Notes: generated by a model from the sequence alone, not told the origin. A stretch of DNA of 64,000 bases from Vicinamibacteria bacterium (GCA_963800785.1 CAWDCH010000008.1:167182-231181); one strand, 5' to 3'. Positions 217 to 34,300 are shown, counted from the stretch's first letter. A program made the numbers and translations.

Positions 217-232
217 TGGCGCGATTCTTGGA
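217..232 (+). promoter_or_regulatory. Putative variant sigma-54 promoter (-12 TTGG)
   Basis: TGGCGCGATTCTTGGA; the -12 position is 14 nt before ATG 245, as at three other sites. Confidence 0.4.
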
Positions 233-244
233 GTGCCGCAGCCC

Positions 245-460
245 ATGAAGGTCGTTGGCGGCGGCGCGGGCGAGACGCTACGTTCACGCGTCCGCGCCGA
301 GTTCATCGAGATGCCGGGGCTGCAGCTTACATTCGAACAGGCCACGCGCCTCTGGGGGCTCGAGCCGAAGGTATGTCAGGCGCTGATCGATGATCTGGTG
401 TCGTGCGGGTTCCTCAGGCGGACGGCCAACGGACGGGTCGCGCGCGCCGAACGTCAGTGA
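245..460 (+). CDS. Small hypothetical protein (71 aa), possibly winged-helix-like
   Basis: MKVV...RVRAEFIEMPGLQLTFEQATRLWGL...GFLRRT; ATG 245 preferred over the ORF-track start at 77. Confidence 0.65.
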   Translation: MKVVGGGAGETLRSRVRAEFIEMPGLQLTFEQATRLWGLEPKVCQALIDDLVSCGFLRRTANGRVARAERQ

Positions 461-519
461 TGGGACAATTCTGTAGGGTGCGCTGGCAGAAGCGACAAGA
501 ATGTCGCCTCTGGTGACTG

Positions 520-1539
520 TCACTGCGACTCGGCGCCGGGCGGGTGAATGACCGCGACAACGTCCGGCGTCTTGAGATTGTCGACCGTCACCATCATCAC
601 GCCGGTATCCACCTGCGGCGCCACGCTCTTGCCCTGGAGGTGGTCGACCATGGTCCGGACGCTGAGATACCCCATGTTCACGGGGTTCTGGACCACGAAT
701 CCCGCCAGTTCCCCGCGCTCGAGCGGTGCGATGAATGCGGAGCTGTAGTCGAAGCCGACGAACGCGATCTTCCCCGCCTTGCCGATGTCCTGAAGCGCCA
801 GCAGCATTCCGGCGGTGGATGATTCATTGGGGGTGAAGATGCCGTCGAGGCGATCGGCGAAGCGATTCAGCAGGTTCTCGGAGGTGCGCTTCGCGGTGTC
901 GCGCGTGGCGCCCGCATATTGATCGGAAGACGTAACGGTGATCCCCGGATAGCTGGCCTTCAACTCGTCGAGAAATCCCTTTTCGCGTTCCTCAGTGGCG
1001 GCGGAGCCTTCCTGATATCGGAGCATCAGGACCGTGCCGCGTCCCTTCAGTACTTCGCCCATGCGTTTCGCCGCCAGGCGGCCGCCCTTGCCGTTGTCGG
1101 TCGACACGTAGCTCGCTGCCTTCGACGGATCGGCGAGCGCCGAGTCGAAGATGACCGTGGGGATTCCGGCTTGCTTGGCTTCCTCGACAGGCCGGAGCAG
1201 CGCAGTGCTGTCGAGCGGCGCCAGGACAATACCGCTCACGCCCTGGCTGATGAAGCCTTCGACGACCTCGACCTGCTGCTCGCGATCGTCCTCGCGGAGG
1301 GGCGACTTCCACAACACTGTGACCGGTACGCCGGCTTTCCGGTATTCCTCCGCCGCCTTCTCGGCGCCGAGGTGCACGCGCTTCCAGTGCTCGTGCGTGG
1401 ATCCCTTCGGCACCATGGCGATCCTGATCTCCTTCGCGCCGCCTGGCGTCGATTTCGAACCGCACGCCATCGCCGTCACGGCCAGGCTCGCCGCCACAAT
1501 CGCGTAGAAACCGATTTGGGGTCTTGTCAGCGTCGTCAC
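520..1539 (-). CDS. Sugar-binding periplasmic lipoprotein (RbsB/Peripla_BP_4-like)
   Basis: Lipobox-like AMAC, IAMVPKG...HW, GIVLAPLD, VIFDS, TDN..GG, VQNP..MGY, VDTG; GTG start at 1539 inferred. Confidence 0.88.
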   Translation of the reverse strand: MTTLTRPQIGFYAIVAASLAVTAMACGSKSTPGGAKEIRIAMVPKGSTHEHWKRVHLGAEKAAEEYRKAGVPVTVLWKSPLREDDREQQVEVVEGFISQGVSGIVLAPLDSTALLRPVEEAKQAGIPTVIFDSALADPSKAASYVSTDNGKGGRLAAKRMGEVLKGRGTVLMLRYQEGSAATEEREKGFLDELKASYPGITVTSSDQYAGATRDTAKRTSENLLNRFADRLDGIFTPNESSTAGMLLALQDIGKAGKIAFVGFDYSSAFIAPLERGELAGFVVQNPVNMGYLSVRTMVDHLQGKSVAPQVDTGVMMVTVDNLKTPDVVAVIHPPGAESQ

Positions 1540-1691
1540 AGCGCGACAGGCTCGCACAGAACCCGGGAATCGGCAACTCCGCTCGTCCCGACAGCCTTCA
1601 CTGTCGTCAGCGGATTCACAGATTGCACAGACTTCTTCGGGGATCATCGGACCGGTGGGCTCGAGGCCGACGTTCCGCGGGCCGGGCGCAT

Positions 1692-4226
1692 TCAATCGAT
1701 GCGCAACGCGCGCATCGGTTCGACCTTCACGGCGCGGCGTGTCGGAGCGAGACCGGCGACAAGGGCCGCCGCGGCGAGCGCCAGGACGGCGCCTGCGATC
1801 GAGGTGCCGTCCATCGGCGTCACGCCGTAGAGCTGACTCTCGACAAAGCGGCTGAGCCACCACGCAATCGGAAGTCCCGCGGCCGCGCCCGCGACGGCAA
1901 TGGTCAGCGTCTCCCGCATGACGAGCCAGCCGACATCGGCACCGCGCGCGCCGAGCGCCATCCGGATACCAATCTCGCGCGTCCGGCGCGCGACCGTGTA
2001 CGCCATCACGCCGTACAACCCGACCACCGCCAGAGCCGTCGCCAGCACGCCGAAGATCGCCGACATCGTCGCCATCAGCCGCTCGTTGCTCAGCGATCGC
2101 GCCACCTGCATATCGACCGATCGCATCGCGCTGACTGGCAGATTCTGGTCGAGCGCGCGCACCGTCTGCCGCGCCGTCGTGAACGCCGATTCGACGTCGC
2201 GCGTGGTCCGGACGTATACGGCGAAGCCACCGGCGTCGCTGACTTCGAGATAGGGGAAGAACACCTGGCTGCGGATCTCGCTGCGCACGTCCGTGTACTT
2301 GGCGTCCCGGACCACGCCGACGATTTCGATCGGCGTCTTCGTCCCCGGATTGGTGCCGAAGCCGATGCGTCGGCCAATCGCGTTCCCGTGGGGGAAGTAC
2401 TTCTTTACGAAGCGCTCGTTAACGATCGCGACACGGAACTCGGGCGTGTCGTCGCCTGCGGGCTTCGGGGCCGTCGCCACGTACTCGTCGCGCTCATTGA
2501 AGTCGCGCCCGGCCACAATCGGCATGCCCAGCGCCTTGAAATATTCAGGGCTGATGGCGTTGCACAACTGGCCGCTGTCTTCGCGGGGCTTCATCTGGTA
2601 CCCCTCGATGGTCATGCCGCTGCTCCACTGATTGCCCTCGAGGATGCGGACGGTGGCCAGGCCTGCGGAGTCGATCCCAGGAGTGGTCCGCAGGCGATCC
2701 AGCAGCGTCTTAGCGAACTGGCGTGTGCGTGCGGAGTCGTAGCCGTTGCGCGACGGATCCACCTCGAACGTGATGAGGTGTCCCGTCTTGATGCCGAGGT
2801 TCACGGTGGTCAGGTTCGAGAGAGTGCGGATGAAGAGCCCGGCACCGAGCAGCAGCAACAACGACACTGCTACTTGCGATGCGACCAGGGCCTTGCGCAT
2901 GCGACCGCGGCCGCCCAGCACGGCGGTCGATTCCGACTTCAGCGTGGGAGCGAGGTCGGCGCGCGTCGATGTGAACGCCGGCGCCAGGCCAAACACGAGG
3001 CCGGTGAGGACCGCGAGGCCGAACGTAAAGCCGAGGATTCGCAGATCCGGCAGTGTCGACACGACCGGCGGGCCGCTGGGATCCGCGAAGAAGCTCAGCA
3101 CGAGCGGCGCCCCGCCGATCGCCAGCGCGAGACCGGCGAGCCCGCCCGCGATCGACAGCGTCAGGCTTTCGACGACGAGCTGTTGAATGAGACGGGACCG
3201 CGTCGCGCCGAGCGAGAGGCGCGTGGCCATCTCGCGCTGTCGGCCGGCGGCTCGCGCGAGGAGGAGATTGGCGACATTTGCGCATGCGATCACCAGAACA
3301 CCGCCCGCAATGGCCATCAGCACCCAGAGCGGCTTCGTCAGCTCGCGCCGGAAGTTTGAATGCCCCCGTGCGGCGGGATCGAGCACCAGCCTGTTGCGCA
3401 GGTAGGTCGCACGAGAATCGGCGGATGCGGCCGCGAATCCCTTCGATTCCACGTCGGCTTGGAGTGTCGATTGAAAGAGCGGCACCAGTGCAGCGTGCGC
3501 CTGCTCGCGCGTGACGCCATCCCGCAGCCGCCCGAACACCCGCACCCAGCGATACAGTCGATCGTCGAGCCCATCCCAACCGGCGGTCATCTGGGGCTTC
3601 ATCATCATCGGCACGAACACCTGCACCGGCTCGCCAATCTCGATGCCATCGAAGCCTTCCTGAACAACACCGACGACAGTGAAGGGATGGCCGTTGATGA
3701 CCGCCGTGCGTCCGACAACGGTCGGATCGGCGCCGAAGCGAGAGGCCCAGAACGCGTAACTCAGGACGGCGACCGGGTGCCCGCCCTTCTGTCGATCGTC
3801 GGCGGGCGTCAGTAGCCGGCCGACCGCAGGCCGCACGCCGAGCACAGGAAAGTAGCTGCCGGTGACGAGCTCCCCGTGCGCCCGGTCGGTCTTTCCCTGA
3901 AAGCCGATGTGCATGTCGTAGCCAAATCGCCCGAACACACCAGAGAAGACGCGGTTGCGATCGCGCACTTCCGTGTAGGTGGGATACGAGATCTCGCTGC
4001 CGTCACCCCAGTTGCTGCCATAGTGCTCGCCCTCGAACGTCACCTGGACCAGCTGGTGCGGATTTTTCACGGGCAGCAACCGCAACAGCACCTGATCGAC
4101 CAGCGTGAAGATCGCGGTGTTCGCGCCGATACCCAGCGCGATCGACAGCACGGCGATTGCGGTGAATCCTGGGCTGCGGCGGGACGTGCGCAGTGCGAAA
4201 CGAAGATCGGAAAGGAAGTAGGCCAT
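1692..4226 (-). CDS. ADOP/MacB-like ABC transporter permease
   Basis: DLRFALR..SPGF, LALGIGANTAIF, IACANVANLLLAR, RRTREIGIRMALGA; no padR adjacent. Confidence 0.93.
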   Translation of the reverse strand: MAYFLSDLRFALRTSRRSPGFTAIAVLSIALGIGANTAIFTLVDQVLLRLLPVKNPHQLVQVTFEGEHYGSNWGDGSEISYPTYTEVRDRNRVFSGVFGRFGYDMHIGFQGKTDRAHGELVTGSYFPVLGVRPAVGRLLTPADDRQKGGHPVAVLSYAFWASRFGADPTVVGRTAVINGHPFTVVGVVQEGFDGIEIGEPVQVFVPMMMKPQMTAGWDGLDDRLYRWVRVFGRLRDGVTREQAHAALVPLFQSTLQADVESKGFAAASADSRATYLRNRLVLDPAARGHSNFRRELTKPLWVLMAIAGGVLVIACANVANLLLARAAGRQREMATRLSLGATRSRLIQQLVVESLTLSIAGGLAGLALAIGGAPLVLSFFADPSGPPVVSTLPDLRILGFTFGLAVLTGLVFGLAPAFTSTRADLAPTLKSESTAVLGGRGRMRKALVASQVAVSLLLLLGAGLFIRTLSNLTTVNLGIKTGHLITFEVDPSRNGYDSARTRQFAKTLLDRLRTTPGIDSAGLATVRILEGNQWSSGMTIEGYQMKPREDSGQLCNAISPEYFKALGMPIVAGRDFNERDEYVATAPKPAGDDTPEFRVAIVNERFVKKYFPHGNAIGRRIGFGTNPGTKTPIEIVGVVRDAKYTDVRSEIRSQVFFPYLEVSDAGGFAVYVRTTRDVESAFTTARQTVRALDQNLPVSAMRSVDMQVARSLSNERLMATMSAIFGVLATALAVVGLYGVMAYTVARRTREIGIRMALGARGADVGWLVMRETLTIAVAGAAAGLPIAWWLSRFVESQLYGVTPMDGTSIAGAVLALAAAALVAGLAPTRRAVKVEPMRALRID

Positions 4227-7307: not shown

Positions 7308-7323
7308 TGGTCCATGGCTTGCT
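7308..7323 (+). promoter_or_regulatory. Putative sigma-54 promoter
   Basis: TGGTCCATGGCTTGCT (GG-N10-GC) about 25 nt upstream of the FAD/Rieske gene. Confidence 0.5.
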
Positions 7324-7347: not shown

Positions 7348-8904
7348 GTGACCATCGTGGATACAACTCCTTACTGGAACGAAGCCGTGTCGCTGCCGAT
7401 GCTGCGCTGGCTCGACAGTGATCTTCGCGTAGATGTAGGCATCGTCGGCGGCGGAATCACCGGCATCACGGCTGCGTATCTGCTCAAAGCGGCGGGCTGT
7501 ACAGTCGCGCTTCTCGATCGTGAGCGCCTGACCAGCGGCGACACGGGAAGCACCACGGCTCATTTGACTGCCGTGACCGACACTCGCCTGACGGAGCTGG
7601 TCGACGAGTTCGGCCGCGACCACGCTCGGGCCGCGTGGGACGCCGGGCTCGCCGCTCTCGCGCAGATCGACGAGCTGGTGCGGTCGGAGCGGATCGCGTG
7701 CGGCTTCGAATGGGTGCCCGCGTATCTGCATACGCCGGCATCCTGGGCGCATGTGCAGCGCGAGGTCCTCAGCGCGGACGATCTCTCGTCCGACGCGCGC
7801 CTTGCTTCGGAGCTTGGATTCGATGCGGAGTTTGTCGACCGGGTGCCTTTCATGGATATGCCCGGAGTGCGATTCGATGGCCAGGCGCGCTTCCATCCGC
7901 GAGCGTACCTTGCGGGACTTCTGCGGCGCATCGATGGCGAGGGCAGCTATGTCTTCGAGCGCTCTCCGGTCGAGGAAGTGATCGACTCGCCGCTGGCACT
8001 CAAGTCCAACGGGCATACCGTGACGTGCAACTACGTGATCGTCGCCACGCATAATCCCATCGTCGGGAAGGCGAGCCTCGCCGCCGCGACACTCCTGCAG
8101 ACGAAGCTGGCGCTCTATTCGAGTTACGTAGTGGCAGGACGTGTCCCGCACGGACATCTTCCTGACGCGTTGTTCCTCGATACCGCTGATCCGTACAACT
8201 ATCTCAGGCTCGATCCTGGCGACGCGTTCGACGTCGCGATCCTCGGCGGAGAAGATCACAAGACCGGCCAGGAACCGGATACCAACGCCCGCTTCCAGCG
8301 GCTGCAGGAGGCGCTAATCCGCGCCGTTCCGGCGGTGCAGATCACGCACCGATGGTCGGGGCAAGTGATCGAGACACTCGATGGCCTGCCGTACATCGGG
8401 GAGTTCGCCGACCGGCAGTTCATCGCCACCGGCTTCGCCGGCAACGGAATGACGTTCGGCACCCTCGCGGCGATGATGGCGCGCGATGCCGTTCTCGGCG
8501 TGCGCAATCCGTGGCGAGATCTGTTCGATCCGTCGCGTACGAAGCTGAGCGCCGGCACAGTATGGGACTACCTGACCGAGAACAAGGATTACCCCTATTA
8601 CCTCATTCGCGATCGATTTGCGGGCGCCGAAGGAAAGTCGCTGCGCGTAGTGAAGCGGGGCCAGGGCCGAACACTCGATCTGAACGGTGAGCGCGTCGCT
8701 GCCTACCGTGCGCCCGATGGATCTGTTGCGGTGCGATCCGCGGTCTGCACCCACATGGGGTGCCTTGTGCGATGGAATCCCGCCGAGCGGACGTGGGACT
8801 GCCCCTGCCATGGCTCGCGGTTCGCGCCGGACGGCAGCGTCCTCTCTGGTCCTGCCGAGGCGCCGCTCGCTGAAGCTTCCCGCGAAGCCACCAAAATCGT
8901 CTGA
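7348..8904 (+). CDS. FAD-dependent oxidoreductase with C-terminal Rieske [2Fe-2S] domain (YhfW-like)
   Basis: VGGGITG, TTAH, GNGMTFG, CTHMGC...WDCPCHGSRF; GTG start at 7348 or 7357. Confidence 0.92.
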   Translation: MTIVDTTPYWNEAVSLPMLRWLDSDLRVDVGIVGGGITGITAAYLLKAAGCTVALLDRERLTSGDTGSTTAHLTAVTDTRLTELVDEFGRDHARAAWDAGLAALAQIDELVRSERIACGFEWVPAYLHTPASWAHVQREVLSADDLSSDARLASELGFDAEFVDRVPFMDMPGVRFDGQARFHPRAYLAGLLRRIDGEGSYVFERSPVEEVIDSPLALKSNGHTVTCNYVIVATHNPIVGKASLAAATLLQTKLALYSSYVVAGRVPHGHLPDALFLDTADPYNYLRLDPGDAFDVAILGGEDHKTGQEPDTNARFQRLQEALIRAVPAVQITHRWSGQVIETLDGLPYIGEFADRQFIATGFAGNGMTFGTLAAMMARDAVLGVRNPWRDLFDPSRTKLSAGTVWDYLTENKDYPYYLIRDRFAGAEGKSLRVVKRGQGRTLDLNGERVAAYRAPDGSVAVRSAVCTHMGCLVRWNPAERTWDCPCHGSRFAPDGSVLSGPAEAPLAEASREATKIV

Positions 8905-8912
8905 GACCCGGC

Positions 8913-10145
8913 ATGGACCTGCGAACCGGGTTTTCCTACTGGTTATTGCGTAACGGGCTGCTGGCGACGTACCCACCGCTCGAAGACGACCAGACGGCAG
9001 ACGTGACTGTGGTTGGCGGCGGCATTACCGGCGCACTCGCCGCATACGAATTGACGCACGCGGGCGCGAATGTCGTGGTCGTCGACAAGCGCGATGTCGC
9101 GAGCGGGAGTTCGTTGGCGACAACTGGCCTGCTCCTGTGCGAGACGGACGCCTCGCTCCTGGATCTCTGCGATCGCGTCGGCGAGCGGGCGGCCGCTCGT
9201 ACCTACCACCTGGGCATCGAGGCGATCAGCCGCATCGAATCGTTGACCACGAGCCTCGCCGATACGTGCGGCTTCGCGCGTCGCTCGAGCCTGTACCTGG
9301 CGTCGACACGCGAGGATGCCAGGATGCTGGAACGCGAGTACGCGTTGCGTCGCAAGCATGGAATCGGCGTGGCGCTGCTCGGCCCGGCTGAGATTCATCG
9401 TAAGTGGGGCATTGACGCGCCGAATGCGCTTTACAGCCACGGCGCCGAAATTGACTGCTTTCGCTTCGCTCATCGGCTCCTGGCCGCAGCGCGCCAGCGA
9501 GGCGCGCGAATCTACGACAGGACGACCGTCGAGCGCCTCGAAGTGGAAGACGGAGCGCGGATGACGATCGTCACGGCGGGCAACCACCGGATCCGGTCGC
9601 GGTGGGTCGTTGCCGCCCTCGGATACGAAGCGGTCGAGCACATCCGGCTACCCCAAACGCAGTTGAGCAGCACCTGGGCGTTTGCCTCGGAGCCGCTGCG
9701 CAATCGCCTCCCGTGGGGCGAGCGCAGCTTAATTTGGGAAACCGCGCGTCCGTATCTCTACGCGCGAACAACGGACGACAACCGGATCGTCGTCGGTGGC
9801 GAGGACGAGCCCTATGCGGAGGGGCACCAGGATCGAGACCTGCTCAAACGCAAGACCGCTCGTCTCGCGTCGCGCATCCGGGAGCTCTTTCCGCACCTGA
9901 GATTCGAGATCGCGTATGCGTGGGCGGGGACGTTCGGATCGACCACCGATGGCCTGCCGCTGATCGGCCCGGCGTCCGACAACCCACGATTGTGGTATGC
10001 GCTCGGCTACGGCGGCAACGGGATCACGCTCAGCACGATCGCGGCACGGCTCGTCGTCGAAGCGTATCTCGGTCGTCCATCGCCCGACGCAGCCTTCTTT
10101 GCGCTCAATCGCCCGGGCGTCGCTGACACGCTGCGCGCGACGTGA
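8913..10145 (+). CDS. FAD-dependent oxidoreductase, DAO family
   Basis: VGGGITGA, WETARPYLYAR, DGLPLIG, LGYGGNGIT. Confidence 0.9.
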   Translation: MDLRTGFSYWLLRNGLLATYPPLEDDQTADVTVVGGGITGALAAYELTHAGANVVVVDKRDVASGSSLATTGLLLCETDASLLDLCDRVGERAAARTYHLGIEAISRIESLTTSLADTCGFARRSSLYLASTREDARMLEREYALRRKHGIGVALLGPAEIHRKWGIDAPNALYSHGAEIDCFRFAHRLLAAARQRGARIYDRTTVERLEVEDGARMTIVTAGNHRIRSRWVVAALGYEAVEHIRLPQTQLSSTWAFASEPLRNRLPWGERSLIWETARPYLYARTTDDNRIVVGGEDEPYAEGHQDRDLLKRKTARLASRIRELFPHLRFEIAYAWAGTFGSTTDGLPLIGPASDNPRLWYALGYGGNGITLSTIAARLVVEAYLGRPSPDAAFFALNRPGVADTLRAT

Positions 10146-11566: not shown

Positions 11567-11652
11567 TCTCGAAGCCCAATCCGCAATTCCCAATCGAATC
11601 CGCAATCCGCAACCAATCCGCAATCCGCAATCCGCAATCCGCAATCCGCAAT
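11556..11652. repeat. Heptamer tandem repeat (AATCCGC)n
   Basis: Many perfect and degenerate AATCCGC units between divergent genes. Confidence 0.9.
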
Positions 11653-23769: not shown

Positions 23770-23785
23770 CGGATCGCTCTTTGCT
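23770..23785 (+). promoter_or_regulatory. Putative sigma-54 promoter
   Basis: CGGATCGCTCTTTGCT; -12 C is 14 nt before ATG 23798. Confidence 0.45.
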
Positions 23786-23797: not shown

Positions 23798-25227
23798 ATG
23801 AAAAGTCATACTGTCCGTCCGGCCGGCTTCAACCGTCGCGTCATCGCCGTCACGATTGCGGCCGCATTGGCCGCCGGGCAGGCACTGGCGCAGACGCAGA
23901 TCACGCCACCGAAAAACAAGTTCACGCCTGAGCAGGACGTGCAGCTCGGTCAGGAAGCTGCGGCCGAAATCCGCAAGGCGTATCCGATCATCAAGAACGA
24001 CGCCGTCGACAGCTTTGTCGACGGCATCGGCGAGCGGCTGGTCGCTGCGGCGCCGCCGCAGTTGAACAACCCGGTGTTCCAGTACAACTTCACGCCGGTC
24101 AACCTGAAAGAGATCAACGCATTCGCACTGCCCGGCGGGCCGATGTTCATCAACCGCGGGATGATCGAGTCGGCGCACACCGAGGGGGAAGTCGCCGGCG
24201 TCATGGCGCACGAGCTCGCACACGTGCTGCTGCGGCACGGCACCGCCAACGCGACGAAGGCGCAGAACTTCCAGATTGGCGCCCTCGCCGGCGCGATCGC
24301 CGGCGCCATCGTCGGCGGTGGCCTCGGTCAGGTGATCAGCCAGGGCAGCCAGTTCGGGCTCGGCACGTGGATGTTGAAGTACAGCCGCGAGTACAAAAGC
24401 AGGCGGACATCCTTGGCGTCCAGATGATGGCGCGCGCCGGCTACGATCCGCGCGACCTGGCGCGCGTGTTCGAGAACATCGAGAAGCAGGGCGGCAGCGG
24501 CGCTCCCCAGTGGATGAGCGATCACCCGAACCCCGGGAATCGCTCGGCTTACATCGCGCAGGAAGCGCAGATGGTCAGGGTGTCGAACGTGCGCGACGAC
24601 AACGGCGATCTGCAGCGAACCAAGCAGGCGCTGTCGACGCTCCCGCGCGCCAGGTCGATGGCCGACCTGGAGCGGGCGGGTGGCCGTGGTGGCGACCCCG
24701 GCAACGAGGCGCCGGCGTCCGTCGGCCGCATCGGCGACCCGGTGCCACCGCCGTCGTCGTCGTATCGAAACGTGCGGGGCGGAAACCTGTTCCAGGCGAG
24801 CGTGCCGTCGAATTGGCAGGCCGTGCAGTCGTCGAACAGCGTCAAGTTCGTGCCCCAGAACGGGCTGGGTGACTACAACGGGGAGAGCGTCTTCACGCAC
24901 GGCGTCGAGGTCGGCGTCGCGCGCGCTGCGTCACGCGATCTGAACGAGGCGACCGAAGCGCTGCTTCAGGCGTTCGCACAGGGGAATCCGAACCTGCGCG
25001 AGGCACGGGACCCGCAGGTCACGCAGTTGGCCCAGCGCCGCGCCCTCGCCCACTATCTCGAGAACCGATCGGCCACCGGTGGCCGCGAGTACGTCGGCCT
25101 CTATACGACGTTCCTCTCGGACGGCAACGTGTTCTACTATCTGACCGTCGCGCCGGACGAGGACGTAAACCGGTTCAACCCGGCGTTTCAGCGAATCGGC
25201 AACTCGATCCGCCTGAACGACCGGTAG
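23798..25227 (+). pseudogene. M48 metallopeptidase with a 1-nt frameshift near 24396 (pseudogene or assembly error)
   Basis: INAFALPGG and AHELAH in frame 1; KQAD..GYDP..SDHPNPGNR in frame 2; GAGTAC-AAAAG-CAGGCGGAC lacks one base of the expected EYEKQAD. Confidence 0.85.
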
Positions 25228-25906: not shown

Positions 25907-26752
25907 TTAAGCCGCCGACCTCGCCCGTTTCTTTGCGCTTGCGGCTTTGCGCGGCGAAGCGCGCTTCGTTGCCGCCTTCCGTCCGCCTTGGGCCAGGCTT
26001 TGACGCAACCGCGTCATCAGATCGATGACCTCCGCGCTCTGACGTGGTTCGGTCGCTTCCAGCTTCGCCGTCTTGCCCTTCATCTTGGCCTTCAGCACTT
26101 TCATCAGGTTACTGGTGTACTCGTCCTTGTACTTCGACGGCTCCCACTCGGACGTCATGCTGTCGACCAGCGACTTGGCGAGCTGCAGCTCCTTCGGACG
26201 AATCTCGGTTTTCTTCGGGAACGACAGCGTGCTTTCGTCGATCAGCTCGTCGGCGAATCGCATCAGCGTAAGCACGATGGCGTCGTCGACGACTGCGATG
26301 CCCGCGAGATGCTGCACCTCGCGCAGCATGACGCGGGCGATGCCGACCTTCTCGGCGTCCGCCATGGCGGCGCGCAGCACGGCGTACGCGCGCTCGTTGC
26401 CCTTCGACGGGACGATGTAGTACGGGACGTCGAAGAACCGCGGGTCAATCTCGGCTTCAGCGACGAAGTCGAGCACGTCGATGACGCGCGATTTCTCCAG
26501 CGCCGCCGCCTCGAAGTCTTCCTTCGTCAGCGTGACGAAGTGGCCCTTTTGGTACTCGTAGCCCTTGACCAGGTCTTCCCAGGGGACGACCTTGCCTTCC
26601 TTACGGCAGACGCGTTCGTACGAGATGGGGGATTTGTCCTTCGCGTGCAGCAGGCGGAACTTCGGACGCGCATCGCGTATGGCGGTGTGAAGCTCGACGG
26701 GAATGGAGACGAGACCGAACGACAGCGTGCCTTTCCAGAGCGCTCTAGCCAT
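25907..26752 (-). CDS. ku: NHEJ DNA end-binding protein Ku
   Basis: WKGTLSFGLVSIPV, VKGYEY, DFV, YKDEY, VIDLM..LRQSL, basic C-terminal tail. Confidence 0.96.
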   Translation of the reverse strand: MARALWKGTLSFGLVSIPVELHTAIRDARPKFRLLHAKDKSPISYERVCRKEGKVVPWEDLVKGYEYQKGHFVTLTKEDFEAAALEKSRVIDVLDFVAEAEIDPRFFDVPYYIVPSKGNERAYAVLRAAMADAEKVGIARVMLREVQHLAGIAVVDDAIVLTLMRFADELIDESTLSFPKKTEIRPKELQLAKSLVDSMTSEWEPSKYKDEYTSNLMKVLKAKMKGKTAKLEATEPRQSAEVIDLMTRLRQSLAQGGRKAATKRASPRKAASAKKRARSAA

Positions 26753-26764: not shown

Positions 26765-26780
26765 TGCAAGCGGGACGCCA
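26765..26780 (-). promoter_or_regulatory. Putative sigma-54 promoter of ku
   Basis: TGGCGTCCCGCTTGCA; -12 C is 14 nt before the ATG. Confidence 0.6.
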
Positions 26781-26798: not shown

Positions 26799-29700
26799 TC
26801 AGAGCTCAGGGGTCGCGCGGTCTGTGAGCGCGCGTCGGGTGCGTGCGAGCAACTCTTCCAATCGCGTCATATCGACGGGCTTGACCAGGTGGTCGTCGAA
26901 CCCGGCCTCCGCAGAGCGGTGGCGATCGCTTTCACTGCCGTACCCGGTCAACGCGACAACCACGGCATCTGCCGTCTCCGGTGCGGCACGCAGCCGTTTG
27001 ACGACGTCGTAGCCACTCATCGACGGCAGGCCGATGTCGAGCACGATCAGCTCGGGGCGCCAGTCCGCTGCCAGCTGCAGCGCGCCCTGGCCGTCGTACG
27101 CAGTTTGTGCCTCATTGCCCAGAGCGCTCAGGAGCATCCGCAGGCTATCTGCCGAGTCGCGATTGTCGTCCACCACCAGGACTCGCAGGCGACCGGCTGA
27201 GGAGGCCCGTGCCCCGGCGTCGAGTGTCAACTGTGCATCCTCCATGGTGGCGCCCGGCGCCGCAAGCGGCAGACGTACCGTGAACACGCTGCCTTTGCCC
27301 GGGCCGCCGCTCGCCGCGGCGACGGAGCCGCCATGCATCTCGGTGAGGCGCTTCACCAGGGTGAGACCAATGCCCAAACCGCCCTGGGATCCGTCCAGCG
27401 TGCGGCCCGACTGCACGAACAAGTCGAAGATCATCGGCAGCACCTCGTCTGAAATGCCCGCCCCGTTGTCCTTTACCTCGACGACGGCATCGCCGTTCTT
27501 TCGCGACGTGCAGATCTCGACGCGTCCCGACTCGGGCGTGAACTTCGCCGCGTTGTTCAGCAGATTCGTCACGACCTGCACCATGCGTGTCAGGTCGACG
27601 TCGACCGGCAAGGGCTGGTTCGCGAAGGTCACCATCAGCGAATGACGGCTGGATTCGATTGCCGGACGGCTGGCCTCGACAGCGCGGTTGACGATAGTCG
27701 CGGCGTCGACCACTTCGCGCTGGAGCACAATCTTGCCCCGAGTGATCCGCGACACGTCCAGCAGATCGTCGACCAGCCGCACCATGTGATCCACCTGCCG
27801 CACCATCATGTCGGACGTCTGCTCGAGGACCGCATCGCCGCGTGCCCTGAGCCGCAGGATGTGCAGCGCGTTTCGGATCGGTGCCAGTGGATTGCGCAGC
27901 TCGTGCGAGAGCATCGCCAGGAATTCGTCCTTGCGGCGATCGGCGTCGCGGAGTGCGTCGTAGAGGCGGCTGTTCTCGATCGCGATTGCCGCCAGGTTCG
28001 CTAACTGCCGGAGAATCGCCTCGTCATCTTCGGTGAAGTCCCCGGATACGCGATCGGACAGCTGGATCGCCCCCAGAATGCGGCCATCGCGACCGACCAG
28101 TGGGACGGCGAGCCACCCGCGGAGCGCGGGACGAAGGCCGTCGTCATCAGGCGGCCACCAGGCGCTTTCCGCCGCGCGCTCGGTTTCCGTGAAACGAATC
28201 GGCGTGCGCCGCCGCCAGACTTCAGGATCCACGCGCGCGGGCCGGACGTCGCGGTCGCGGAGCGCAGCGTGCTTGTCGGAGAACGAGCACGCTGTGAGTG
28301 CGTTGTCCCAGTCTTCGTTCACCGCGATGCTGCTGTACGACTGATGAGAGGGGACGATGGTGAGGGCTTCACCTGCCATCACGCCGGCGATGCTCGTCAA
28401 CGACTGCGAGGCATTGATGGTGAGCGACGCGGCCGCGGCGCGCTGAAGACGTGTGCCGGTCTCGCGCTCCCGCTGCAGGCTGCCGACGAGTGCCTCGCGC
28501 GCGATTCGTTCGTCGTGCACGTCGATGGCGACGCCCGTCCAACGCTCGATCGTCCCGTCGGCCCGTTTGATTGCGCGTCCCTGAATCTGATGCCAGCGAT
28601 CCGCGCCGTCGGCCGCCCGGCGGATTGGCGCTTCGATCTCGCAGGTGTCGCCGCCCGCAATCGCGATGCGCCAGCCGTGCCGGGTGGCTTCGCGGTGCTC
28701 GGCCGGCACCGCCTGGAGCCAGCCGTCCCCAGCTGACTGATCGCTCGACAGACCGGTCAGATTCGACCACCACTGGTTGACAAACGTCAGGCGGCCATCC
28801 GGCGACGCCATCCACACGCTTTGCGGCGAGACCTCGATGAGCGTGCGATAGCGATCTTCGCTTTCCTGGAGGGCACGTTCGGCCTGGCGCCGTTCGCCGA
28901 TGTCGCGGAAGACGAGCACGACGCCGGTCATGGCGCCGCTGCGGTCGCGAATTGGCGCGCCGCTGTCGTCGATGGCGACTTCGGATCCGTCGCGGCGGAT
29001 GAGCAGCGTGTGGTTGGCGAGCCCGACGACGAGCCCTTCCTTCAAGACCTTGCTGACCGGACTCTCCACCGTCTGACGCGAGTGCTCGTTGACGATGCGG
29101 AACACTTCGGTGAGCGGGCGATTGATCGCGTCGCTGTTCCAGCCGGTGAGTTCCTCGGCGACGCGGTTCATGAACGTGACATTCCCGTTGGTGTTCGTGA
29201 CGATCACGGCTTCGCCGATGCTGGCGAGCGTGACTCGATAGCGCTCGCGTTCGTTGGCGACGACCATCGCCGACCGCTGCCGCACCAGCAGGACGCGCCT
29301 GACCAGCATGAAGACGAGGCCGACCATCACCGCCGCGACGCCCGTAGAAATGAGGTTGGAGACGAGCGCCAGCTGAAAACGGTGCGCGGCCACCGTCTCA
29401 CGCCCTTCGAGGAGGCCTTCCTCGACGCGCCGCATCTCCGCGATGCGCGCGCGGACCGTGTTCATGTGTTGCCGGCCTTCGCCCGTTGCGACAACGGCGC
29501 GACCGCGCTCGAGTCCATCCGGGCCCTGGCGTTCGGCGATGCTGCGATCGATCGTGTCGAGTCTTGCGCGGGCGGCGCGTTCGACTTCAACCAGCCGCGC
29601 CAGCTGGGACGGATTGTCGGGGATCAACGTGCGAACACCCTGGATCGCTTGCGGCATTGCCGCGGCGGCGGCGCGATATTGATCGAGGTAGCCCTGGTCT

Positions 29701-29978
29701 GCGGTGAGGATGAATCCGCGCTGGGCGGTTTCTGCTTCAGTGAGCGACGCGATGATCGACTCGAGTCCCGCGAGCACTCGGTGGGTGTGGTCGACCGACT
29801 CCTGAGAGCTGACGAGCTGGGACGTCTGCCGGTAGGAGAGCGCGGCGCTGGCGGCGAGTACGAGCCAGAGAACGACGAAGCCGATTGTCCACGGCCCGAT
29901 GTTCAGCGCACGCTGGCAGTGCGGACAGACCACCACACCCGTCGGGAGATCCCGACGGCACATCGGACACTGGGTCAT
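26799..29978 (-). CDS. Hybrid sensor histidine kinase (Zn-ribbon-like, CHASE3, PAS x2, GAF, HisKA, HATPase, REC)
   Basis: CPMC..CPHC, AETAQRGF, NHTLLI..IDDSGAPI, SHELRNPL, NLLNNAAKF, GLGIGL, VVDD..LDIGLP..ALTGY..KPV. Confidence 0.93.
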   Translation of the reverse strand: MTQCPMCRRDLPTGVVVCPHCQRALNIGPWTIGFVVLWLVLAASAALSYRQTSQLVSSQESVDHTHRVLAGLESIIASLTEAETAQRGFILTADQGYLDQYRAAAAAMPQAIQGVRTLIPDNPSQLARLVEVERAARARLDTIDRSIAERQGPDGLERGRAVVATGEGRQHMNTVRARIAEMRRVEEGLLEGRETVAAHRFQLALVSNLISTGVAAVMVGLVFMLVRRVLLVRQRSAMVVANERERYRVTLASIGEAVIVTNTNGNVTFMNRVAEELTGWNSDAINRPLTEVFRIVNEHSRQTVESPVSKVLKEGLVVGLANHTLLIRRDGSEVAIDDSGAPIRDRSGAMTGVVLVFRDIGERRQAERALQESEDRYRTLIEVSPQSVWMASPDGRLTFVNQWWSNLTGLSSDQSAGDGWLQAVPAEHREATRHGWRIAIAGGDTCEIEAPIRRAADGADRWHQIQGRAIKRADGTIERWTGVAIDVHDERIAREALVGSLQRERETGTRLQRAAAASLTINASQSLTSIAGVMAGEALTIVPSHQSYSSIAVNEDWDNALTACSFSDKHAALRDRDVRPARVDPEVWRRRTPIRFTETERAAESAWWPPDDDGLRPALRGWLAVPLVGRDGRILGAIQLSDRVSGDFTEDDEAILRQLANLAAIAIENSRLYDALRDADRRKDEFLAMLSHELRNPLAPIRNALHILRLRARGDAVLEQTSDMMVRQVDHMVRLVDDLLDVSRITRGKIVLQREVVDAATIVNRAVEASRPAIESSRHSLMVTFANQPLPVDVDLTRMVQVVTNLLNNAAKFTPESGRVEICTSRKNGDAVVEVKDNGAGISDEVLPMIFDLFVQSGRTLDGSQGGLGIGLTLVKRLTEMHGGSVAAASGGPGKGSVFTVRLPLAAPGATMEDAQLTLDAGARASSAGRLRVLVVDDNRDSADSLRMLLSALGNEAQTAYDGQGALQLAADWRPELIVLDIGLPSMSGYDVVKRLRAAPETADAVVVALTGYGSESDRHRSAEAGFDDHLVKPVDMTRLEELLARTRRALTDRATPEL

Positions 29979-30029: not shown

Positions 30030-30091
30030 GGGGGGATCCGTGTGCCAGTTAAGACTAAGCGGAGCCGCGACTTGTCCGCAAGCGGACTGGG

Positions 30092-30313: not shown

Positions 30314-30395
30314 CGTCTTTGTGCCACCTCTTGGTGTGATCCTACGAAAACCTGGGACGAAAGTTTCTGCGCTGGGTGGGGGCCTGTCCCCGCCC

Positions 30396-31070: not shown

Positions 31071-31169
31071 GGGCGGTCATTCTGTCACACGGTCTCGCCG
31101 GGTGTTGCAGATGCCGACACTGTCGCGCGCACGGCTGAACCGTCGCCGCAAACGTCAACGCGGGGGTCG

Positions 31170-31185
31170 TGGCGCACCCCTTGCA
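31170..31185 (+). promoter_or_regulatory. Putative sigma-54 promoter
   Basis: TGGCGCACCCCTTGCA, near consensus; -12 C is 14 nt before ATG 31198. Confidence 0.65.
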
Positions 31186-31197
31186 CCTCATCGCCGT

Positions 31198-31897
31198 ATG
31201 ACTCCGCCGATTTCACCTCGGCCGCTGATGATCGCGGCCGCGACAGCTCTGCTGACGGCGACGCTCGTGTCCACTGAGCTCTTCGCTCAGCCACCGGCGC
31301 CAGCGCAGCCAGCCACGCCACCAGCACAACCAGGCGCGCCGCCACCATCGCCGCCGCCATACGCCGGGACAACCAACCGCGCCGCCGACGCCCGCCACGC
31401 CCACGCCGCCGACGACAACGACGCCCGCGCCAAGCACGCCGACGAATCCGTCAGAGCCGATGCCTGGCACGACGACAACGCCGCCGACGGCGCCGAAGGC
31501 CACGACCGGCGTCACGCCGCGTGTGTTGACGAACGAGGGGCCGCTGCCCGGGCAGATCGGTCTGCCGATCGCGATGACCGGCTGCGTGAAGCGCATCGAG
31601 CGCCTTGATACCGACAACGCTTCGGTCGCCGACGTGATCAATCGCCCGATGACCGCCTACGTGCTCGAGCCATCAGGCGGGGAGGTGGACGAGGAGCGGC
31701 GTGTCACGGGGCTGATCTCCGCCAACGGGGGCGTTCGACTGGACGCAGTGGTCGGCAAGGCCGTCGTGGTCTCGGGCACGATGCGGCCGCCGATGGCGAT
31801 CGGCTCCCCGCCGAAAGGTGCCGACTCGCCAGAGATGACGGAGCTTCAACCGATGATCGTGCGATCGCTGAAGGCAGCGAGCGTCCAGTGCCGGTGA
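31198..31897 (+). pseudogene. Secreted Pro/Thr-rich protein with a C-terminal TGC...C domain, frameshifted near 31360
   Basis: Signal peptide and Pro-rich linker continue in the +1 frame (TPGQPTAPPT...MPG) into ORF 31460-31897. Confidence 0.7.
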
Positions 31898-31928
31898 GTG
31901 CGCTCGCGCAATCTGACGGAGGCTTGAC

Positions 31929-32414
31929 GTGAACGAACGACAGAAAGTCTACGAGATGCTCGATCGGTTCGAGTCCGCAATGCTCGTCACGCACAATCCG
32001 GACGGCATCCTCGACGCACGGCCCATGCGCGTGGCAGAGGTCGAACCGTCCGGCCAGCTGTGGTTCCTGGCGTCGCGATCGAGCCGCAAGGTCGGCGAAA
32101 TCGCGAAAGACTCGCGTGTCCTTCTGGTGTACCAGGACGGCGGCGAATACCTGTCGATCTTCGGCACTGCACGGCTCGTCGACGACACGCTGCGGACGCG
32201 TCGCCTTTGGAAAGAATCCTACAAGGTGTGGTTCCCCAAAGGGCCCGACGACGCTGACATCATGCTGCTCTCGATAGAGCCGGAAATCGCCGAGTTCTGG
32301 GACGTTGGCGGACTGAACGGCCTCCGCTACCTGTTCGACGCGGCGAAAGCCTACGTTACCGGTGACCGCGCAGCCATCGAGGACAGCGACAAGCACGCGC
32401 GGCTGCGCGTCTAG
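31929..32414 (+). CDS. Pyridoxamine 5'-phosphate oxidase-like general stress protein
   Basis: GGAGG RBS, AMLVT, ARPM, LWF, YLSIFGTA, WFPKGPDD, AEFWD. Confidence 0.88.
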   Translation: MNERQKVYEMLDRFESAMLVTHNPDGILDARPMRVAEVEPSGQLWFLASRSSRKVGEIAKDSRVLLVYQDGGEYLSIFGTARLVDDTLRTRRLWKESYKVWFPKGPDDADIMLLSIEPEIAEFWDVGGLNGLRYLFDAAKAYVTGDRAAIEDSDKHARLRV

Positions 32415-32454
32415 AGCAGTTTTCGTTTCCATGTGGAAGTAAGTCCTTCGTCCA

Positions 32455-32575
32455 TGGGCCTTAGTCCTTAGTCCGTTCTTTGTCCAGTGTCCTTCGTCCT
32501 GATGTCGTTCCGGTGGACCATGGACGATGTGGACCATAGGACGGACCAAGGACGAAAAGCCAAGGACCAGGAACA
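32455..32575. repeat. Degenerate inverted heptamer repeats (..GTCC / GGAC..)
   Basis: TTAGTCC-type units facing GGACCAA-type units. Confidence 0.55.
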
Positions 32576-32619
32576 GGTGCTGCACGGATCTGAAAAGCAC
32601 TCTAATGCCGGAGGGCACC

Positions 32620-33117
32620 GTGACACGATCATCGATCGTCAGAGCCATTGCCGCCGCCACTGTCCTGTCGACTGCGCCGCTGGCGGCACAATCCACGGCG
32701 CCGCCGAACGTCGCCCCGCCACAGGGCGAACAACGGCAGCCTGCGGCTACTACCGAAGAAATGAAGATCACGGGATGTCTCTCGGCCGCGGCGAATGCGG
32801 GTGCCGCCACGGGCGAAGCGAACAACGCGTCGAAATACCAGCTGAAGACGACGCCGGTGGGAAAGACGGACGCGGGGGAGTATGCCCTGCTGCAGCCGGG
32901 GACGCCGGATCTGAAGCTGGAGTCTTATGTCGGCCGCAAAGTCGAGATCACCGCACGACCCGCGGCCACCGCGGATCCGCTGTCGAAGCCGCAGTCGAAC
33001 GAGGGCGTCTCGACCAGTCAGCCGAGCGGCTCGACGGGAATGGAGACAATCCCTCCGCCAAGCGGTCGGACGCTGGTCGTCAGCGCGGTCAAGGTGATTG
33101 CGTCTTCGTGCCAGTAA
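32620..33117 (+). CDS. Secreted hypothetical protein, TGC...C family
   Basis: GGAGG RBS, signal peptide, ITGCL..YQL..LESYVGRKVEIT..VSAVKVIASSC. Confidence 0.75.
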   Translation: MTRSSIVRAIAAATVLSTAPLAAQSTAPPNVAPPQGEQRQPAATTEEMKITGCLSAAANAGAATGEANNASKYQLKTTPVGKTDAGEYALLQPGTPDLKLESYVGRKVEITARPAATADPLSKPQSNEGVSTSQPSGSTGMETIPPPSGRTLVVSAVKVIASSCQ

Positions 33118-33691
33118 CCAGGCCAATGCGGCGGCCCGCGGCGCAGTGATCGATCAGCGTCGCGAGCCGTCGCCGCTGGGTCTCTTCCTTCACGGCGCTG
33201 ACCACATACCAGATCGCCGTTCGCCGATAGCCAGGCGGCTGCGCCGCGAAGAACGCCCACGCCTTCTTGTTCGCGCGAAAGTCTCGCTCGAGCGGCGGAT
33301 CCAAGCGGGTTGGCCGCTCCTCGTAGGAGTAGCGGCCCACCTTCTTTGTGGATCGCTTCTGATACGCCGCGAGGCCTGGCGGCCGCATGAGGCCGGCGGC
33401 GATCAATTCCTCCGCGCGCTTTCGATTCACCGCGCTCCACACGCTGTCCGGTCGCCGCGGCGAGAACCGGTTCGTGTAGCTCGTGGCATCGACGCGTCTT
33501 CGCACGCCGTCGATCCAGCCGTAGGCGAGCGCCAGATCGACGGCTTCGCGGTAGGTGAGGCCCCCTCGACCTGATGCCTTGTTGTAGAACCCGACCATCA
33601 GCTCGCGCTCATGATCGTGATGTTTCGCGAGCCACGACTCGAACGCGTCCGCTGAAGCGAAGTAGGTTATGCGAGCGGCTGCACGCGCCAT
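33089..33691 (-). CDS. YdeI/OmpD-associated family protein
   Basis: FESWLAKHH, ALAYGWIDG, RFSPRRPDSVWS, AVKEETQRRRL. Confidence 0.9.
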   Translation of the reverse strand: MARAAARITYFASADAFESWLAKHHDHERELMVGFYNKASGRGGLTYREAVDLALAYGWIDGVRRRVDATSYTNRFSPRRPDSVWSAVNRKRAEELIAAGLMRPPGLAAYQKRSTKKVGRYSYEERPTRLDPPLERDFRANKKAWAFFAAQPPGYRRTAIWYVVSAVKEETQRRRLATLIDHCAAGRRIGLVTGTKTQSP

Positions 33692-33757
33692 GCCCGCATA
33701 TTTTAGCGCTCGTGGTCGGTGTCATGGCCCGACGAAAGTCGGGGCGGCAGATACCGC

Positions 33758-34225
33758 CTACGTGCGGGCCATCTCCGAGACGTCCGGCACGTCGACGCCG
33801 AGCGCTGTCGCCAGATCGATCTGATGCTCCTGCTCCTGACGGAGGATCTCCCGGATCTCCTCGGCCATCGCGTACTCGCCCAGCGCCTCGCACTGCTTCA
33901 CGCGCTCGCGATAATTGCGGACGGTCGTATTCTCGTTGTCGAGATCGAACCGCAGCATCTGCTCCGGATCGTCGGACGTCTTCACGGGCTCTGCTTTCAC
34001 CGTCGGCATGCCGCCGAGATAGTCAATCTGCTTCGCCACGACGAGCGCATGCTGAAGCTCTTCCGACGCGTGCTTCTCGAGCTCCTTCGCGATGCTCATG
34101 TATGCCGCACCCTTGAGCACCTGTGAGTAGTTCACGTAGGCGATGACCGCTTGATACTCGCGGGCGAGATCGCCGTTCAGCAACTCGATCAGCTTCTCAC
34201 GACTGATTTTGACGTCGGCTGCCAT
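33758..34225 (-). CDS. Ferritin-like (bacterioferritin-type) protein
   Basis: LNGDLAREYQA..Y, EELQHA, IDYLGG, EQEHQ diiron ligands. Confidence 0.9.
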   Translation of the reverse strand: MAADVKISREKLIELLNGDLAREYQAVIAYVNYSQVLKGAAYMSIAKELEKHASEELQHALVVAKQIDYLGGMPTVKAEPVKTSDDPEQMLRFDLDNENTTVRNYRERVKQCEALGEYAMAEEIREILRQEQEHQIDLATALGVDVPDVSEMART

Positions 34226-34284
34226 GGGAATTCCTCTCGAAGAAAGTAAACGTCTGGTAGGGCGGTAGGGCCTTCGTGACGCGG

Positions 34285-34300
34285 TGCAAGGCATGTTCCA
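34285..34300 (-). promoter_or_regulatory. Putative sigma-54 promoter of the ferritin-like gene
   Basis: TGGAACATGCCTTGCA (GG-N10-GC), 60 nt upstream of the ATG. Confidence 0.55.

Follow-up and report, generated by a model that had tools for sequence, protein, structure and literature searches.

Sigma-54-type motifs and the genes they face

The window analysed here, a stretch of 64,000 nt (C8:167182-231181; positions below are counted from its first nucleotide), comes from the 7.46-Mb genome of a Vicinamibacteria bacterium, which is spread over 22 contigs and has 64.6% G+C. It holds a gene for Ku, a protein of non-homologous end-joining, among a group of genes preceded by motifs resembling the -24/-12 promoters of sigma-54 (RpoN); these motifs, several of which lie almost against the start codon, are the subject of this work. 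The closest named Ku loci belonged to metagenome-assembled genomes of Vicinamibacterales (Acidobacteriota), the probable order of the host. A sequence-only reading of this DNA had listed seven GG-N10-GC motifs and had proposed that RpoN may run a general-stress or dormancy programme through near-leaderless transcripts; all seven motifs are present, at the coordinates given below.

The ku gene (25907-26752, minus strand) encodes a 281-aa protein (Pfam Ku, 1.6e-45; 295 bits to the NCBIfam equivalog Ku_bact, whose cut-off is 150). Its sigma-54-type motif, TGGCGTCCCGCTTGCA (26765-26780, minus strand), stands 13 nt before the ATG, within the 46-nt gap that follows the stop codon of a hybrid sensor histidine kinase gene (26799-29936, minus strand; CHASE3-PAS-GAF-HisKA-HATPase-REC by Pfam) located directly upstream. 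A hybrid histidine kinase gene also precedes ku in relative G005, and not in G001 or in more distant relatives; its product is a candidate sensor for ku.

The same distance was found at three genes on the plus strand. The sigma-54-like motif TGGCGCGATTCTTGGA (217-232, plus strand), with TTGG at -12, lies 13 nt before the ATG at 245 of a gene for a 71-aa protein (245-460), a member of a multi-copy small-protein family without a Pfam match. The sigma-54-like CGGATCGCTCTTTGCT (23770-23785, plus strand) lies 13 nt before the ATG at 23798 of an M48 peptidase gene (23798-25227), and the sigma-54-type TGGCGCACCCCTTGCA (31170-31185, plus strand) lies 13 nt before the ATG at 31198 of a gene for a secreted protein (31198-31897), followed by a PNPOx-like gene (31929-32414; Pfam Pyrid_ox_like), the pair spanning 31198-32414. 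In these four cases (245, 23798, 26752 and 31198), which the sequence-only reading had singled out, the C of GC and the A of the ATG have 13 nt between them, which makes the A the 14th base, in agreement with that reading.

The three remaining motifs, all sigma-54-type, stand farther from their genes. TGGTCCATGGCTTGCT (7308-7323, plus strand) precedes by 25 nt the GTG of a gene for an FAD-dependent oxidoreductase with a C-terminal Rieske domain (7348-8904; Pfam DAO and Rieske), which is followed by a second DAO-family oxidoreductase gene (8913-10145), the two occupying 7348-10145 on the plus strand. TGGAACATGCCTTGCA (34285-34300, minus strand) lies 60 nt before a gene for a 155-aa ferritin-like/Dps-like protein (33758-34225, minus strand; Pfam Ferritin, 4.8e-24; NCBIfam bfr and DpsA weak, below cut-off), with a Shine-Dalgarno sequence in the leader. 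TGGCATTGCCGTTGCT (3-18, minus strand) is found 135 nt upstream of a GAF-glycogen-phosphorylase-like gene just beyond the window, whose product matches the Phosphorylase and GAF domains of Pfam. GG and GC are exactly 10 nt apart in a TGGCAC-N5-TTGCW-like context, with GG in place of GC at the 245 site and CGGAT at -24 at the M48 site.

Two of these genes are interrupted. The M48 gene is read in two overlapping frames (23798-24427 and 24367-25227), with Pfam Peptidase_M48 on both pieces; the open frame has 219 aa here versus a single frame of about 420-600 aa in most relatives, owing to a frameshift or an assembly error. The 31198 protein has a signal peptide, a Pro/Thr-rich linker and a conserved C-terminal domain, and is encoded by a single open reading frame (ORF) of 233-251 aa in G005 and G001. 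In this genome (G000) and in G013 the frame is broken within the low-complexity linker, so 31198-31608 and 31460-31897 are two halves of one gene.

Conservation of the motifs in relatives

Ku orthologs were fetched from 40 relatives, and 19 orthologs of this ku paralog, with 44-90% protein identity, were examined; L021, whose match starts at residue 49, was excluded. A GG-N8-TTGC motif was present within 110 nt upstream, on the coding strand, in 14 of the 19, compared with 0.67 expected from a background of 0.035 per 110 nt, counted on both strands of the remainder of these loci. The sequence-only reading had named the ku orthologs as a place to check its proposal, and there the motif proved to be conserved. 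The neighbours of ku vary (hybrid histidine kinase, GDSL lipase, FAD/Rieske, ligD, iron permease with SDR), as do the bases between the two halves of the motif, and the motif therefore travels with ku.

Some of these neighbours recur. The FAD/Rieske gene, which is linked to ku in G011, G012 and G014, stands directly behind it in L006 and L007 (G012 and G011, respectively), and this hints that the oxidoreductase may work with end-joining or under the same stress. In genus g2 (L008, L009 and L011) ligD is directly behind ku, with DUF892 and DUF2934 genes upstream.

Conservation in other species was strong for six of the seven motifs. The FAD/Rieske motif was kept 25-50 nt upstream in eight of 13 orthologs; in two more (G011 and G012) the gene directly follows ku, and none was seen in three. 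The ferritin/Dps-like promoter took the form TGGAACA-N4-TTGCA, CGGCAT-N5-TGGCA or TGGCATTCGTATTGCT in 10 of 13 orthologs, 23-71 nt upstream and with a Shine-Dalgarno sequence in the leader. For the M48 gene, GG-N8-TTGC was found upstream in 11 of the 13 orthologs shown. The 217-232 motif was retained as TGGCGCG-N4-TTTGG in four homologs, at a distance of 13 or 15 nt or else ahead of a leader that contains a Shine-Dalgarno sequence; the roughly 70-aa family to which the 245 gene belongs reaches up to eight copies per genome in relatives, and three further paralogs carry a canonical TGG-N8-TTGC upstream. The seventh motif, that at 3-18, was identical in the single relative examined, G013, which is the closest one, although its flanks have diverged.

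We then considered Ku loci at a wider scale. A regular-expression survey of 41 of the 80 nearest Ku loci in a species-wide collection, chosen by taxon and leaving out Pseudomonadota, most Actinomycetota, Bacillota and Bacteroidota, found the motif at nine: two in Vicinamibacterales (16 and 14 nt from the start codon), one in Thermoanaerobaculia (28 nt, with a Shine-Dalgarno sequence), three of five in Gemmatimonadota (42-49 nt), one in Methylomirabilota (13 nt), one of 21 in Verrucomicrobiota and one in Sorangium (64 nt). With a stricter matrix, six of all 80 loci passed 12 bits, versus 0.004 expected per 130 nt. Since none of the 18 Pseudomonadota and none of the 12 Actinomycetota Ku loci passed this threshold, the predicted link between sigma-54 and ku is lineage-specific, centred on Acidobacteriota and Gemmatimonadota.

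A different arrangement was observed at most ku loci of Chthoniobacterales (Verrucomicrobiota; L041-L055), where the word CGCGAAA, about 6-8 nt and TTT, ending about 3 nt before the ATG, place a conserved word about 20 nt upstream of the gene. This word recalls the TAnnTTTG -7 box of Bacteroidota, and ku looks leaderless there too, from another type of promoter.

Genome-wide enrichment of the motif and the sigma-54 machinery

In a GC-rich genome such motifs could be functionless chance matches, and the counts within the window are compatible with this explanation: the bare core GG-N9-TGC was not enriched there (196 versus 198 expected), and the excess of TGG-N8-TTGC was modest (11 matches versus 5.78 expected, a count of 11 being reached by two of 100 shuffles), so that the window by itself is weak evidence against chance. 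Promoter-oriented TGG-N8-TTGC occurred at five sites in 34 kb versus 0.54 expected, a figure that is descriptive because the window was selected for the cluster. Chance is nevertheless extremely unlikely to account for the motifs, as the excess across the genome is specific for spacer, strand and offset, six motifs are conserved across species and the seventh is identical in the one relative examined.

The genome-wide counts were as follows. Within 250 nt of a start codon, promoter-oriented TGG-N8-TTGC was found 107 times, versus 60-79 for spacers of 6, 7, 9 and 10, while sites pointing the wrong way numbered 39, versus 44-65 for the other spacers. For the longer TGGC-N7-TTGC, 62 promoter-oriented sites were counted, versus 27 and 20. 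A position weight matrix (PWM) trained on 31 different ortholog promoters, belonging to ku, dps and FAD/Rieske, reads T-GG-C-A/C...C-TT-GC-A/T and gave 144 matches of at least 13 bits. Of these, 63 fell in coding sequence, 67 were promoter-oriented and 14 pointed the other way; among those no more than 300 nt from a gene boundary, 53 were promoter-oriented versus seven anti-oriented. The top match of the genome was the 34285-34300 motif, though this site was part of the training set. An earlier matrix, derived from the textbook consensus by refinement on every noncoding match, had drifted and was discarded.

The PWM also recovered classical sigma-54 targets on which it had not been trained, namely the ammonium transporter gene amtB, a pilin gene beside a gene for a bacterial enhancer-binding protein (bEBP), and polysaccharide export; GG-N8-TTGC was present 14-15 nt before the start codons of an HlyD gene, itself beside a bEBP gene, and of fliA. 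Because the excess is specific for spacer and orientation and classical targets were recovered, the genome can be said to contain a genuine class of sigma-54 motifs, which numbers some 50 sites or more. The PWM scan and the histogram of distances to start codons (see below), both of which the sequence-only reading had put forward as checks, gave enrichment over background.

That reading had also named the lack of rpoN as an outcome that would refute it. A single, complete rpoN is encoded, as a 475-aa ORF with PF00309, PF04963 and PF04552 (AID, CBD and DBD), and the sigma-54 interaction domain PF00158 had 45 matches in the genome, about 40 of them strong (E < 1e-50) and representing bEBP genes. 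The motif, its spacing, its orientation towards genes and its conservation amid diverging flanks are thus accompanied by a complete rpoN and about 40 bEBPs.

Some further sequences in the window resemble the motif. TGGCGCAGGTCTGGCA (35535-35550, plus strand; 13.0 bits by PWM) is sigma-54-like and lies 107 nt before a gene for a 132-aa protein (35657-36055; no Pfam match), outside the range covered by the sequence-only reading. A TGG-N9-TTGC at 34320-34335, facing an SDR gene, was rejected for its wrong spacer. Also rejected was a TGGCAC upstream of the LigD pair of the window, which has the wrong spacing and belongs to an inverted repeat of short words (AGTGCTAAGTGCCAAGTG ... CACTTGGCACTTAGCACT) at 40640-40790; a LigD split into a ligase domain (39722-40603) and a primase-polymerase (38856-39725) has this repeat upstream. 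Tandem GGATTGC heptamers at 11620-11647, found also at C12:213733, C12:1410229 and C18:146993, produced false motif matches in pattern scans.

Start codons that abut the motif

In ten ku orthologs (L002, L003, L004, L005, L010, L012, L014, L015, L019 and L020) the distance from GC to the ATG is 12-14 nt, which leaves no room for a Shine-Dalgarno sequence, and in L006 the ATG comes 14 nt after TTGG. The bases between motif and ATG vary freely in the orthologs with 12-14 nt. In four others (L007, L008, L009 and L011) the motif is 26-43 nt upstream and is accompanied by a GGAGG-like Shine-Dalgarno sequence; L013 has the same layout with CTGC at -12. The N-terminus of Ku is conserved from residue 1, with M1, R3, W6 and G8 invariant, and for this reason we take the ATG to be the true start. 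Such an either/or layout is expected of a promoter, as a leader comes with a ribosome-binding site and, without a leader, the distance between motif and ATG is fixed.

The stop codon of the kinase gene, only 46 nt from the ku ATG and on the same strand, raises the alternative that Ku is made from a longer transcript, begun at an unseen promoter farther upstream or reaching ku by read-through of the kinase gene, and that the motif binds sigma-54 polymerase without being a working ku promoter, the closed complex acting as a brake or having no effect. We consider this very unlikely: the motif accompanies ku even where another gene, or one on the other strand, lies upstream, the distance of 12-14 nt is constant while the intervening bases are free, and the orthologs with a distant motif have a Shine-Dalgarno sequence and those with 12-14 nt have none, which fits a transcript starting just after the motif.

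Comparable layouts were seen at other genes. TGGC-N7-TTGCA, 13 nt and ATG were present in all four orthologs of the 31198 gene, with the signal peptide starting at that ATG in all four, and the ATG of the M48 gene lies 13-14 nt after GC in six of the 13 orthologs. On contig C15 there is a BrkB/YihY gene whose four closest orthologs have GTGGAGCTTCCCTTGCA in common, followed by 12 variable bases and the ATG; among the homologs of this gene the start is 12-14 nt after GC in 11 of 14 (seven clearly ATG, and four ATG or GTG by protein alignment). A 360-aa protein encoded on contig C10 starts exactly 13 nt after GC in four of six homologs (one ATG and three GTG). Its gene shares a 186-nt divergent gap (C10:166738-166924; L115/L165) with a DJ-1/PfpI gene, and this gap contains back-to-back sigma-54-type motifs, 13 nt before the 360-aa gene and 42 nt before DJ-1/PfpI. 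Also, two genes for PF05635 proteins (23S-rRNA-intervening-sequence protein), at C19:461497-462165 and C15:123285-123959 (L122 and L129), have GG-N8-TTGCA 12-14 nt before the ATG.

The layout was also apparent in a histogram of the distance after GG-N8-TTGC of ATGs at the head of coding ORFs 70 codons long or longer, with no coding-like sequence before them in frame. Starts at 11, 12, 13 and 14 nt numbered 11, 5, 16 and 12, where the remaining offsets between 0 and 70 averaged 4.9. The 13- and 14-nt bins together hold 28 starts versus about 10 expected (Poisson tail, 1.5e-6; 5e-5 for the 13-nt bin alone), and with control spacers of 6, 7, 9 and 10 no offset bin exceeded 10. These comparisons confirmed, at the level of sequence, a subclass of conserved sigma-54-type promoters that abuts the start codon.

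Transcription from sigma-54 promoters starts about 12 nt after the C of GC (the C being at -12). As the ATG follows GC by 12-14 nt, the ku, M48, 31198 and 245 mRNAs are likely to have a leader of about 1-3 nt without a Shine-Dalgarno sequence, and would fall within a published definition of leaderless, which allows up to 5 nt between start site and start codon (PMC12754779).

Leaderless translation of another class seems common in this organism. We selected 789 confident ATG starts, with a strong coding score, an in-frame stop at most 45 nt upstream and no alternative start in between. A Shine-Dalgarno core was present at -18 to -5 in 258 of them (33%), versus 10% in a control window. Among the 531 core-less starts, a TANNNT began at -15, -14, -13 and -12 in 37, 23, 12 and 39 cases, versus about 4 elsewhere, the in-frame part of this signal being perhaps due in part to stop-codon selection, though other in-frame positions gave only 5-13. 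In all, TANNNT at -15 to -12 preceded 111 of the 789 starts (about 14%), which suggests that sigma-70-type leaderless genes are widespread in the genome. In agreement with this, Zheng et al. (2011) predicted 9.7-19.4% leaderless genes in three of three Acidobacteria (PMC3160421). These authors state that their method detects only Pribnow-type promoters (PMC3160421), and a near-leaderless class read by sigma-54 would for that reason be invisible to it.

Predicted control of ku and its neighbours, and the question of a single regulon

We regard it as probable that the motifs are conserved sigma-54 promoters that put ku, the ferritin/Dps-like gene, the FAD/Rieske operon, M48, the secreted-protein gene (with the PNPOx-like gene), the 71-aa gene and the glycogen-phosphorylase-like gene under enhancer-dependent transcription, with ku, M48, 31198 and 245 being near-leaderless. 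According to this model, sigma-54 RNA polymerase would be held on the motifs as a closed complex, firing only when a signal-sensing AAA+ activator remodels it, and this would provide a tight off-state. The ku, M48, 31198 and 245 transcripts would begin 1-3 nt before the ATG and be read in leaderless mode, the 5'-terminal AUG being exposed only on RNAs begun at the sigma-54 promoter. As the 5'-terminal AUG would need a sigma-54 start, read-through from the kinase gene would be expected to translate ku poorly.

A number of observations weigh against this model. Regarding the motif itself, an exact GG-N8-TTGC is missing from five of the 19 ku orthologs: L006 and L013 have variants (TTGG and CTGC, respectively), and in L016, L017 and L018 no recognisable motif was present upstream of ku. 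Two sites of the window are less canonical, with CGGAT at -24 for M48 and TTGG at -12 (GG for GC) for 245, both variants being kept in orthologs. The PWM training set included three of the window's own genes. With respect to the layout, GTG starts are implied in some orthologs of the 360-aa protein and in two BrkB homologs, GTG being a poor leaderless start codon in Escherichia coli (PMC3616915), and some of the near-leaderless candidates found across the genome, such as one inside an EngA-like gene, are surely due to chance. Gene calls came from a home-made codon-usage model (5856 genes, 83% of the genome) and are rough, especially in their start codons. A screen for RNA runs containing the ku region listed none; about a tenth of its sequence words occurred in two metatranscriptome runs, in the form of contigs, which do not reveal a 5' end.

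Other points on the same side concern the activator. No bEBP gene was found on the contig of the window among the PF00158 matches of the genome. A shared activator site was revealed neither by exact k-mers over the seven window promoters nor by k-mers over 32 ortholog promoters, and Gibbs sampling of 15 stress-type promoters at widths 12 and 16 yielded information contents of 11.4 and 12.5, versus 9.6-11.9 in shuffles, and no site. When ku upstream regions were compared, no conserved block was seen where the neighbour changes. These methods are crude, and the sites may sit in neighbouring coding sequence.

Two candidates for a regulatory element or an activator were set aside. Between the divergent promoters at 3-18 and 217-232 there is a palindrome-like word, GACATTTTTGTC, with a core, ACATTTTTGTC, that G013 retains; this word was not placed tellingly beside other sigma-54 sites in a search restricted to the plus strand with two mismatches, which missed the original minus-strand copy. 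A minimal bEBP of 270 aa (C16:251650-252462; L296:3151-3963), consisting of the AAA+ domain only, with no sensor or helix-turn-helix, was rejected as an enhancer-independent activator, the short form being present in one of 40 relatives. It lies near Fpg/Nei-like and Lhr-like DNA-repair genes.

The model of enhancer-dependent promoters leaves room for more than one arrangement of activators. The stress-type content of the gene set speaks for one dedicated regulon, in which a single stress or dormancy activator would drive all the promoters and sigma-54 would take the role of RpoS, SigB or EcfG: to ku, the ferritin/Dps-like gene and the PNPOx-like gene are added, elsewhere in the genome, sigma-54-headed genes for DJ-1/PfpI, OsmC/Ohr, BON, glycogen debranching enzyme, phosphoglucomutase and FtsH. 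In addition, the promoters cluster in 34 kb, in an island that is syntenic in the three closest relatives (G013, G005 and G001), ku and FAD/Rieske form one operon in G011 and G012, and in genus g2 ku-ligD, with its DUF892 and DUF2934 neighbours, is behind a sigma-54 motif. We find such a regulon rather unlikely all the same. No common upstream site emerged from the k-mer or Gibbs analyses, and the hallmark stress genes of the genome do not all share the promoter type, which was present at ku, the ferritin/Dps-like gene, DJ-1/PfpI, OsmC/Ohr and BON and absent from csbD, three DUF892 genes, a second ku and five LigD primase-polymerase genes, including the pair of the window (38856-40603), no motif of at least 8 bits being located directly upstream of these, though weak distant matches occurred at two of the DUF892 genes; a catalase gene was looked for in the genome and none was found. 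Moreover, the motifs of ku, dps and FAD do not strictly co-vary, given that G004 and G021 lack it on ku yet have it on FAD/Rieske and, in G004, also on dps. There are about 40 bEBPs and many non-stress targets, and since the same motif also heads amtB, the pilin gene beside a bEBP, polysaccharide export and fliA, that is, nitrogen, pilus, export and flagellar genes, sigma-54 must run many circuits in this organism.

Those numerous bEBPs fit with several unrelated circuits, each with a different activator (responding, for instance, to DNA damage, iron or oxidative conditions, the envelope or carbon storage), the cluster being then a matter of neighbourhood. In distant relatives the genes are on different contigs and retain their motifs, and elsewhere in this genome the OsmC/Ohr gene adjoins its own bEBP. 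The -24 halves are also gene-specific (TGGAACA for dps, TGGTC for FAD, CGGATCG for M48 and TGGCG for ku), but this is no argument for separate activators, because the -24 half concerns sigma-54 binding. On the other hand, the operons of ku with FAD/Rieske or ligD in some relatives and the common stress flavour of the gene set do not favour unrelated control. We judge separate circuits a serious possibility, a little short of an even chance. Of the programme proposed by the sequence-only reading, real sigma-54-type promoters, several of them on stress-type genes, were borne out, and the one shared regulon was not; a single general-stress regulon is possible but unproven.

Implications and comparison with known systems

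A sigma-54 promoter stays silent until an ATPase fires it, and a leaderless message skips the ribosome-binding step that is usual elsewhere. Should the layout function as predicted, their combination would be a new expression design. Full-text searches outside the subscription journals gave no paper with a conserved pairing of the two, nor any in which sigma-54 controls Ku or drives leaderless mRNAs, although single examples may exist in supplementary tables of transcription start sites. The model makes a sharp prediction, namely a primary 5' end located 1-3 nt before the ATG and dependent on rpoN. It also points to a blind spot in annotation, in that leaderless predictors seek only the sigma-70 -10 box and the sigma-54 class goes uncounted.

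Acidobacteria, Gemmatimonadota and Methylomirabilota are abundant and mostly uncultured, and we know of no description of a general-stress sigma factor in these groups. For uncultured soil bacteria, the layout suggests a concrete way in which DNA-break repair and iron storage might be reserved for non-growing cells. A bolder extension, which we think unlikely and put forward as speculation, is that sigma-54, together with an AAA+ activator that senses stress, replaces RpoS, SigB or EcfG in Vicinamibacteria and allied soil phyla as the switch of a survival programme comprising end-joining repair, iron sequestration, proteolysis and the use of glycogen, its key genes being leaderless and translated only from sigma-54-started RNAs. 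If true, this would amount to a lock with two steps, one on transcription and one on translation, of a kind that no sigma-54 system is known to have.

The classical enhancer-dependent sigma-54 promoters include glnAp2 and those of nifH and pspA. Like them, the motifs described here have GG and GC 10 nt apart, T before GG, C/A after GG and TT before GC, in accordance with the consensus TGGCAC-N5-TTGCW credited to Barrios et al. 1999 (PMC5243855). As in classical systems, rpoN is complete and AAA+ activators are many, and the same matrix finds the amtB and pilin promoters. Unlike the classical promoters, no upstream activator site was found here, the targets are ku and stress-type genes, and the start codon of several genes is too close for a leader or a ribosome-binding site.

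A closer parallel in function is the peroxide response of Myxococcus xanthus, in which the bEBP PexR and sigma-54 control ahpC and katB, a system described as phylum-wide (PMC12754779). As would be the case here, stress defence is under a bEBP and sigma-54 rather than a stress factor of the sigma-70 family. In contrast to the window promoters, the M. xanthus system has a known activator with three upstream sites and a known signal, and ku is not among the targets described in the available text of that report; the transcript suggested there to be leaderless is that of pexR itself, from a sigma-A promoter (PMC12754779).

The near-leaderless genes of this study also resemble sigma-70-type leaderless genes, which have TANNNT about 12 nt before the start (PMC3160421), in that the promoter abuts the ORF and no Shine-Dalgarno sequence is present. 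They differ from them in that their promoter is of the -24/-12 class, which has its own sigma factor and depends on an ATPase.

In other bacteria ku is under stress or sporulation sigma factors, as in the general stress response of Sinorhizobium meliloti and under the forespore sigma of Bacillus subtilis. The proposed control shares with these the principle of reserving Ku for non-growing or stressed cells by means of an alternative sigma factor, Ku being linked in S. meliloti to heat and starvation (PMC9069715). Nevertheless, the factors of S. meliloti and B. subtilis are of the sigma-70 family and are held by anti-sigma factors, whereas in the control proposed here an activator driven by ATP would act on sigma-54 as the switch.

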